The notes beneath the pieces are model-generated. The model was given only the letters and a program-made list of their open reading frames with translations, searched no databases and had not been told where the DNA came from. From Candidatus Helarchaeota ASGARD archaeon Hel_GB_B (GTDB lineage: Archaea; Asgardarchaeota; Lokiarchaeia; Helarchaeales; HEL-GB-B): a DNA stretch of 32,000 bases. This document shows, one piece after another, positions 19,299-20,330 of the stretch. The first letter of the stretch is position 1. Each line of letters opens with the position of its first letter. The stretch lies in assembly GCA_005191425.1 (NCBI GenBank), contig SUPR01000025.1, forward strand, positions 1-32,000, written 5' to 3'. The translations under genes were made by a program, and so were the position numbers.

Positions 19299-20330
19299 TT
19301 ATTTTTTCACCCATTCGATGTCCTGCCCTAATTTGTCCAAAAAGCTGGCAAGAATTGTCCTCGGGATATTCATTTTTTTAGAAATTTCTTTTAATGAATG
19401 ATTACCATTACAATAATGTATAATTTCTGAAAATAATTTATTGAGGTCTGGGTCTATATCTATCGATTTTAAAAGGTTAAAGTTCGTTATTACTGGATAT
19501 ATCCTAACTGGTCGTACCCAACCCTCTTTCATACAAAATGCCACAATCTCTTTTACTTTGTCCAAATCTACATTTAATTTTAAATGGATCCCATTTATAC
19601 TGATTTTTCCCTCCTTCATTAAAGTTAATATATCTATTCCTTTTTTACCAAAATTATTCATTATAGTTTCATATACATAAGAAATTTTCTCAAAAATATT
19701 TTTTCCTTCCTCTGTTAAGATATAGATATCTGTATTTTTAATCATCTCACTTAATTGCCCTCCTATTTGAATTATCCCAAGTTCTTGAAGATATGCAAGT
19801 TTCTCAATTACCGATTCTATTGGTTCATTTAAACGGTTAGAAATTTCTTTTACATCTGATGTATTGTCTATAGCAACTAATAGATTTAACGTAGACCGAT
19901 CAATGAAATCCTCTGATAAAATAGGCACGTCATTCATTGATATGAATTCTGGAGCAAATTTTTTTACAATTATTTCTTTATATGGATCAAAAATTACTGT
20001 ATCTGCAGCTGGATCTATCTCATAAATCTCTTCAAATAATTTAATTGTCTCTCTTAATATTCTTCTTATATTTGGAGTGTCTGTTTTCGCTAAAAGTAAA
20101 CCTATGATTTCCTTCCCGGGTTCTATCAATATCTTAAAATCTCCCCTATCTACAGCTCTGATTATTTTATTTGAATTTGAATTGGGCATTATAAAATTTA
20201 AAAAGGATGAGATCGCGGATAAGAAACCCGATACCATCTGCTCATCTAACGAAGAACCTATGAAACTATGGTGAAGTATACATGTCCCAACATTCTTTAT
20301 TACAAAAAATATTTCAAATATTCTAGCCAT
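19299..20330 (-). CDS. Longin-like N-terminal domain + three winged-helix repeats (NPRL2/GATOR1-like architecture; Asgard-type)
   Basis: aa 1-125 'IFFVIK.VG.CIL...[15 protein letters not shown]...KILIE.G..IIGLLL' is a longin/roadblock-like pattern typical of Asgard proteins. It is followed by repeats of 'hD...shkEIS..h......h..L...G.h' at about aa 133-190, 200-275 and 277-340. Confidence 0.7.
   Translation of the reverse strand: [343 protein letters not shown]

Follow-up and report, generated by a model that had tools for sequence, protein, structure and literature searches.

In eukaryotic amino-acid sensing, the Rag GTPases are turned off by a GTPase-activating protein (GAP) whose catalytic core is formed by two longin proteins, NPRL2 and NPRL3. 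A single gene of the Asgard archaeon Candidatus Helarchaeota Hel_GB_B raises the question of what a protein with the look of NPRL2 might be, and might do, in an archaeal cell. The gene lies in a window of 32,000 nucleotides, the whole stretch of DNA that was analyzed, which makes up the opening 32 kb of a contig of 38 kb (SUPR01000025.1) in a genome of 3.5 Mb, 182 contigs and 93.7% completeness. Its coding sequence, at 19299..20330 on the minus strand (as are all features of the protein given below), starts with ATG and encodes 343 amino acids followed by a stop codon. A preliminary description, whose coordinates and quoted sequence proved exact, had likened the product to NPRL2. The overall build of the protein is indeed NPRL2/NPRL3-like, and its tail is related to those of NPRL2 and NPRL3 by homology.

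Judging from sequence comparison, the open reading frame (ORF) is a real gene, because orthologues match it from end to end and non-synonymous divergence (pN) is far below synonymous divergence (pS). Eleven proteins of 342-360 amino acids from Helarchaeota and Lokiarchaeota metagenome-assembled genomes (MAGs) align over the whole length at 40-83% identity, and the comparison with the 83% orthologue gives a pN of 0.095 against a pS of 0.75, the synonymous sites being saturated; by this measure the gene is under strong purifying selection. Near-identical DNA is present in several sequencing runs labelled as hydrothermal-vent or marine-sediment metagenomes, all of them DNA runs, with no RNA run among those found to contain the stretch. 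An NCBIfam search with the protein gave nothing close to any cut-off.

The first AlphaFold2 model, for which 12 orthologues were the input, was poor, with a predicted local distance difference test score (pLDDT) of 58. HMMER, run exhaustively against 1.8 billion representatives, yielded 147 relatives; in most of these the likeness is confined to the N-terminal 125 residues, set within very different proteins, and about 30 can be aligned across most of the length. A second model, made from a 99-sequence alignment, reached a pLDDT of 89.4 and a predicted template modeling score (pTM) of 0.72, and in it the longin-like N-terminus and the three winged-helix-like repeats of the preliminary description can both be seen. 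The order of strands (b) and helices (a) over residues 3-129 is b-b-a-b-b-b-a-a, of the longin type, with b1 at residues 4-11, b2 at 17-22, a1 at 30-47, b3 at 59-61, b4 at 66-71, b5 at 75-81, a2 at 86-102 and a3 at 117-129. When residues 1-129 were aligned structurally with VIA-align, Z-scores of 12-14 and root-mean-square deviations of 2.5-3 Å over 115-125 residues were obtained against the longins of Fuzzy, Sec22b, VAMP7 and TRAPP synbindin, and the same range of Z was found with Mon1-Ccz1 and the small-subunit longins of AP (including AP sigma) and COPI complexes. In the model, then, the N-terminal domain is a canonical longin, bounded by these two lines of evidence at residues 1-130 (19941..20330).

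The longin is followed by an acidic linker (residues 131-144, 19899..19940) with an NDVP motif that aligns to the YDVP of NPRL2, and then by three units, each of three helices and a hairpin. Winged helix 1 (residues about 145-215, 19686..19898) is acidic, with an isoelectric point (pI) of 4.5, and aligns to about residues 185-250 of NPRL2. Winged helix 2 (residues 216-283, 19482..19685) has a pI of 9.2 and ends in a wing, VRPVRIYPV, that aligns to a ten-residue string of NPRL2, and winged helix 3 (residues 284-343, 19302..19481) completes the chain. A prediction of the protein as a two-copy homodimer scored 0.39, where the mark was 0.42, and speaks neither for nor against such a dimer.

The kinship of this build was apparent from structure and from sequence profiles alike. 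A Foldseek search of the PDB with the better model, one of the checks proposed in the preliminary description, placed Npr2, NPRL2, Npr3 and NPRL3 chains of the SEA complex and GATOR1 at all of ranks 1 to 15, with expectation values (E) from 1.4e-11 to 1.5e-4 and alignments of 405-585 columns that take in both proteins from end to end; isolated longins appear in the same list from E 2e-4 onward. Even the poor first model gave the same ranking with NPRL chains at the top, and its tail could be rigidly aligned with NPRL3 at Z 8.3 and with NPRL2 at Z 7.9 (model residues 137-343, chain residues 183-380). Global TM-scores are low, at about 0.26, because the orientation of the domains differs in the free monomer model. 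A search of the ESM Atlas by shape gave, after the Asgard clusters, three eukaryotic clusters named “Nitrogen permease regulator 2” as the first named non-archaeal rows.

Sequence profiles led to the same proteins. When a profile of 34 relatives was compared with all PDB sequences, human NPRL2 ranked first (E 2.3e-8, 36.5 bits), the match running from profile positions 132-282 to NPRL2 170-332, so that the linker and winged helices 1 and 2 are colinear over about 150 residues. Yeast Npr2 took third place (E 3.3e-4); among transcription factors the top score was E 3e-3, for one of the MarR type, and the 99-row alignment used as a profile reproduced the NPRL2 result. The breadth of the profile mattered, as a narrow family profile of 12 rows found nothing significant among PDB sequences and the broader one of 34 rows was needed to reach NPRL2; with the single 343-residue sequence nothing came up but bacterioferritin noise and NPRL3 (E 0.87). 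A word-indexed search with the broad alignment added only shorter Freya, Jord and Loki relatives. The results were therefore not confined to generic ArsR/MarR regulators with a non-longin N-terminal domain, the outcome that the preliminary description had named as fatal to its proposal: the longin scores Z 12-14, and NPRL2 is reached at E 2.3e-8, as against 3e-3 or above for MarR-type proteins.

The third winged helix provides a further link, since it matches PF24064 (HTH_NPRL3, “GATOR1 complex protein NPRL3, C-terminal HTH”) over residues 293-337 (window 19320-19454) at 29.5 bits, above the curated cut-off of 27.2, with E 7e-7. No other ORF of the genome is above this cut-off; seven of the 34 relatives also match the family, and two of them touch PF06218 (NPR2), with a best E of 1.2e-4. 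As a profile on its own against the PDB, winged helix 3 found only generic helix-turn-helix (HTH) matches at E > 0.03, and no NPRL protein.

These alignments also allow the motif pairs of the preliminary description to be judged. The NPRL2 strings that it had quoted (YDVP and a further 47 letters) are all present in the PDB sequence of NPRL2, and three of the five pairs that it had set in the same order in both proteins fall at aligned positions in the significant profile alignment, namely the pair that runs from NDVP over a 19-residue string to LQELGII in one protein and from YDVP over 21 residues to LLYYGVV in the other, the pair DIYILT and NVYCPT, and a pair of 14 and 13 residues. The remaining two pairs correspond at the level of the fold only: RIFEIFF and RIECIFF lie in b1, where the longin alone gave no significant NPRL2 sequence match, and the pair of an 11-residue string with YTGCHSYDEI lies in the third unit, which passes the HTH_NPRL3 threshold though it has no significant NPRL2 match by itself.

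Whether the likeness extends to catalysis is a separate matter. In GAP-type longins (NPRL2, FLCN, SMCR8, C9orf72) a GP motif has been defined at the b1-b2 turn or the start of b2 (PMC12290439), and an Arg finger with an adjoining Asn has been described as R78-N79 in NPRL2 and R84-N85 in Npr2 (PMC8534245, PMC12999518). The position of the GP motif, in the b1-b2 loop, is occupied in the archaeal protein by a conserved G15 (20286..20288) that is followed by T16 and not by P; the second residue is L in other members of the family, including the 360-residue orthologues, and G-x-P is found in some distant relatives. The b4-b5 loop consists of just three residues, G72-K73-E74 (20109..20117), preceded by a near-invariant E70, and it has no conserved Arg or Asn in the 34 relatives aligned, K73 being replaced by E or N in orthologues. 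The long Arg-finger loop is thus absent, as had been proposed, provided that this loop is the counterpart of the one that carries R78, an equivalence suggested by longin topology and by published accounts of these motifs (PMC12290439, PMC12999518) at the level of the loop, not of single residues. That the Arg finger of NPRL2 sits at the b4-b5 loop is itself presumed, in keeping with the alignment of the preliminary description. On the aligned residues, then, the Arg finger and GP motif of NPRL2, FLCN and SMCR8 are missing. What the family does keep invariant is a cluster of R58, D61-R62-G63-D64, K66, E70 and R89, mostly at the end of the sheet opposite the GP and Arg-finger positions, with D61-R62-G63-D64 (20139..20150) forming invariant alignment columns in the b3-b4 loop at that opposite end.

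By its full-length profile and build, the protein is an NPRL-like relative and not a subunit of GATOR1, because it has neither Arg finger nor GP motif and is not matched by Pfam's NPR2 and NPR3 models, and because a search of the 93.7%-complete genome for IML1 (DEPDC5/Iml1) found nothing at E <= 1. Many shorter longin and winged-helix paralogues are encoded there, yet the full family profile is covered by only one ORF, which suggests that a full-length pair of the NPRL2/NPRL3 type is lacking. The reading that is favored, and that is considered probable, is of a cytoplasmic Asgard protein, distantly homologous to NPRL2 and NPRL3, in which a non-catalytic longin platform and a winged-helix scaffold dock either a small GTPase or a second protein of the longin kind. 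The platform is read as non-catalytic because neither of the two motifs is present. Going by what longin proteins generally do, the N-terminal domain would be the site at which a small GTPase docks, the three winged helices would act as a protein-protein scaffold, as do the C-terminal domains of NPRL2 and NPRL3, and not as a reader of DNA, and the whole would represent an NPRL3-like or pre-duplication form instead of a Rag GAP; any link to nutrient sensing would be by extension from these eukaryotic relatives.

Further support for this reading comes from the loci of two relatives and from a fusion. The gene of relative P0014 (347 amino acids, 28% identical in an end-to-end alignment) has two genes for small GTPases of the Ras/Arf type behind it, at spacings of 27 and 12 bp (L050:1225-3366), a TRAPP/Bet3-family gene comes 3 bp after that of relative P0025 (L057:5001-6631), and the source genome itself encodes a longin joined to an Arf-like GTPase. 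The two arrangements may be operons that name partners of the family. No GTPase or TRAPP neighbor was found beside relatives P0021, P0016 and P0056, no GTPase gene was found in the ±1.5-kb flanks of the loci of 11 relatives, and the locus of P0022, a 1.9-kb contig with only two unannotated neighboring fragments, was uninformative.

Several observations weigh against the favored reading. The curated Pfam models NPR2 (PF06218) and NPR3 (PF03666), against which the preliminary description had proposed to check the protein, do not match it at E <= 10, and six-frame searches of the genome likewise gave no match on this ORF. The longin domain alone, as a query against PDB sequences, gives no NPRL2 signal, and rigid superposition puts it nearest to longins of SNAREs and of the guanine nucleotide exchange factor (GEF) type (Fuzzy, synbindin, Sec22b), not specifically to NPRL2. 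The gene stands among housekeeping genes (gyrB, gyrA, Trm1, cyclophilin, a THEP1-type NTPase and DnaJ-DnaK-GrpE), no partner gene adjoins it or its close orthologues, and the adjacency to GTPase and TRAPP genes is known from single contigs of distant relatives. Lastly, winged helix 2 is basic and several winged-helix units lie just below TrmB and MarR thresholds.

The last of these points is at the heart of a different proposal, by which the protein would be a transcription regulator whose longin senses a ligand or the state of a GTPase and whose winged helix or helices, likeliest the basic second, bind DNA in the manner of TrmB/MarR/ArsR-type factors. Winged-helix factors are the commonest archaeal regulators, the net charge of winged helix 2 is +1 to +5 in 11 of 12 orthologues, and there are sub-threshold Pfam matches to TrmB (24.8 bits, where 25.6 is required), MarR (15.4, where 24.6 is required), HTH_45 and HTH_24; Levine et al. 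leave DNA binding open even for NPRL2 and NPRL3 (PMC3747258), which was also counted in favor. Such a role is nevertheless judged unlikely. The TrmB and MarR scores fall short of their cut-offs, and in the profile search NPRL2 and Npr2 are ahead of the MarR-type regulators by five orders of magnitude. Only the second unit is even mildly basic: the first is acidic, the third is mostly neutral to acidic, and the protein as a whole is acidic, with a net charge of -6 to -23 across the family, a predicted charge that favors the binding of protein over the binding of DNA. A chain that carries three differing winged helices in tandem fits the tail of an NPRL protein and not a dimeric regulator, and there is no divergent target operon, as the upstream neighbor is the cyclophilin gene, which is not kept at the locus of the 43% orthologue.

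Two other proposals concern catalysis and descent. The protein could have GAP or GEF activity of its own toward a Rag/Arf-like GTPase, working through a non-canonical residue (K73 or E70, for instance, at the end of the sheet that forms the NPRL2 pocket) or through an arginine that a partner contributes in trans. Conservation of G15 and E70 at the sheet end where GAP longins have the GP motif and Arg finger counts in its favor, as do the nearest longin structures, those of the GEFs Fuzzy-Inturned, Mon1-Ccz1 and TRAPP, and the many candidate substrate GTPases of the genome; but a b4-b5 loop that lacks a conserved Arg or Asn in any subfamily, a K73 that gives way to E or N, the missing GP motif and the absence of any partner found make activity of this sort rather improbable. 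Still less credence is given to the view that the likeness to NPRL2 and NPRL3 arose by convergent shuffling, members of an abundant longin family having been joined to winged helices without direct descent. In its favor, the genome joins more than 40 longin paralogues to partners of widely differing kinds, Liu et al. (bioRxiv 10.1101/2020.10.19.343400) stress how extensively domains are shuffled in Asgard archaea, and the longin lacks an NPRL-specific sequence signal. In the tail, on the other hand, the linker motif and the two winged helices after it align colinearly over a single stretch of about 150 residues, a third unit matches HTH_NPRL3, and independent assembly is disfavored because it would not be expected to produce colinearity over three units.

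The favored reading of a docking platform can be carried further, to a proposal that is speculative and improbable. Three ORFs of 1514-1696 amino acids (C106:26849-31849, C132:2054-6598 and C134:12321-17411) have C-terminal parts that carry the same longin domain, and in the C134 ORF the likeness extends through two winged helices (profile positions 3-264); a Pfam scan of two of the three giant ORFs found no family. They look like proteins with an NPRL-like cytoplasmic tail. The 343-residue protein, as a pre-duplication form of NPRL2/NPRL3, might pair at the membrane with the longin and winged-helix tails of these giant proteins of 1500-1700 amino acids, longin to longin and tail to tail, and the resulting pseudo-heterodimer might dock a Rag/Arf-like GTPase. 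If that were so, the core of the platform on which GATOR1 and the Rag GTPases meet would, without its catalysis, predate the eukaryotes.

The genomic surroundings are of interest in their own right. The Trm1 gene (tRNA m2,2G methyltransferase, 18117-19295, plus strand) is convergent with the target gene and ends 3 bp from its stop codon, and bacterial-type gyrB and gyrA genes (13610-18078, plus strand), here in an Asgard genome, lie directly upstream of Trm1. The neighbors of the 83% orthologue are the same, and at the locus of the 43% orthologue only the convergent Trm1 is kept, all others being different; the pairing with Trm1 is read as leftover synteny. Elsewhere in the window, an ORF at 3021-4667 (plus strand) encodes a 2-oxoacid dehydrogenase E2 (lipoyl, E3-binding and acyltransferase domains) with a C-terminal carboxymuconolactone-decarboxylase (CMD/AhpD-like) domain. 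The ORFs at 7040-7927 (plus strand, 295 amino acids) and 27235-28164 (minus strand, 309 amino acids) have no Pfam match at E <= 1e-4, and that at 28127-28579 (minus strand, 150 amino acids) has none at E <= 1e-3; none of the three matches the longin or winged-helix profiles of the target family.

As the preliminary description had noted, there is no GTPase or roadblock gene in the 32-kb window. Just past its end, on the same contig and 12.6 kb downstream of the target, is the gene of a 509-amino-acid paralogue (G000:C102:32938-34467, plus strand) composed of a longin and two winged helices with inserts, which covers positions 7-278 of the family profile. Next come a radical-SAM gene and the gene of a 179-amino-acid GTPase of the Ras/Rab type (C102:36271-36810, plus strand; Pfam Ras E 1.5e-44).

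Further afield in the genome, the longin family of the target takes in more than 40 ORFs, in fusions as different as giant proteins, PCI, MFS and GTPase. The GTPase fusion is a protein of 295 amino acids with a longin and an Arf/Ras-type domain (G000:C131:21456-22346, minus strand). A protein of 722 amino acids combines PCI, longin and a winged helix (G000:C160:19223-21394, minus strand) and has weak UFM1-ligase/DDRGK-like matches. In another, of 581 amino acids (G000:C107:56709-58454, minus strand), one winged helix weakly matches Pfam NPR2 (E 0.08) and HTH_NPRL3 (E 0.003), and is followed by a long low-complexity stretch rich in Pro, Glu and Lys and by C-terminal zinc-ribbon CxxC pairs. GTPases are plentiful: Gtr1_RagA has 26 matches, 12 of them at E < 1e-18, these mostly in ORFs of about 310-320 amino acids, and the genome encodes about a dozen Rag/Gtr-like GTPases together with many Arf/Rab-like ones. 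Across 301 Asgard genomes, the family profile has matches in 232 at E <= 1e-10, and relatives of about 400-430 amino acids are common in the phylum; among the matches listed, those of full model length come only from the source genome and from G294, a genome of the same order.

Set beside known systems, the protein is closest to NPRL2 and NPRL3 (Npr2 and Npr3 in yeast), the longin subunits of GATOR1/SEACIT that serve as GAP for RagA/Gtr1 and that have the same order of an N-terminal longin and tandem winged helices. It differs from them in being about 40-230 residues shorter, in lacking a TINI-type insert, the Arg finger with its Asn and the GP motif, and in having one full-length copy in a genome with no IML1/DEPDC5 match instead of a paralogous pair. 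Its build agrees with the account of Levine et al., who described NPRL2 and NPRL3 as a longin with two or more winged-HTH repeats (PMC3747258). The longins of Fuzzy (CPLANE), Mon1-Ccz1, TRAPP synbindin/Bet5, Sec22b and VAMP7 are the best rigid-body matches to the N-terminal domain, and none of these proteins has a winged-helix tail; relatives within the target family touch Pfam Sybindin and Fuz_longin_1, and one of them precedes a TRAPP/Bet3 gene.

A bacterial comparison may be drawn with the cvn “conservon” and MglB-type sets of Streptomyces, in which a Roadblock protein, a DUF742 winged-helix protein and an MglA-like GTPase are separate small proteins encoded in an operon with a sensor kinase. 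A roadblock/longin-fold platform, a winged helix and a small GTPase are common to both, but here the platform and winged helices form one chain and the topology is that of a longin and not of a roadblock domain. Three orthologues have weak Pfam DUF742 matches, and the link is a weak one.

The nearest company is found among the Asgard archaea themselves. [quoted passage not shown] NPRL2-like families were already known in this phylum, as the preliminary description had said, and its find is accordingly less new than it implied: Liu et al. (bioRxiv 10.1101/2020.10.19.343400; Nature 2021) reported a family with the domain organization of NPRL2 in the majority of Thor MAGs and in a few from Loki, along with many NPRL2-like longin fusions. 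Their families join a longin to an NPRL2-type C-terminal domain, as is the case here, a likeness drawn from the descriptions and not from a comparison of asCOG profiles. Proteins of this kind are thus already catalogued in Asgard archaea, and the target gene is a clean further example. As a small, soluble-looking, single-copy and well-modelled protein with the whole NPRL domain order, it is a convenient subject for work on the binding partners of the ancestral scaffold and on whether GAP activity came later. What sets it apart is the lack of catalytic motifs, its single copy, its three winged helices and the only above-threshold HTH_NPRL3 match of its genome.

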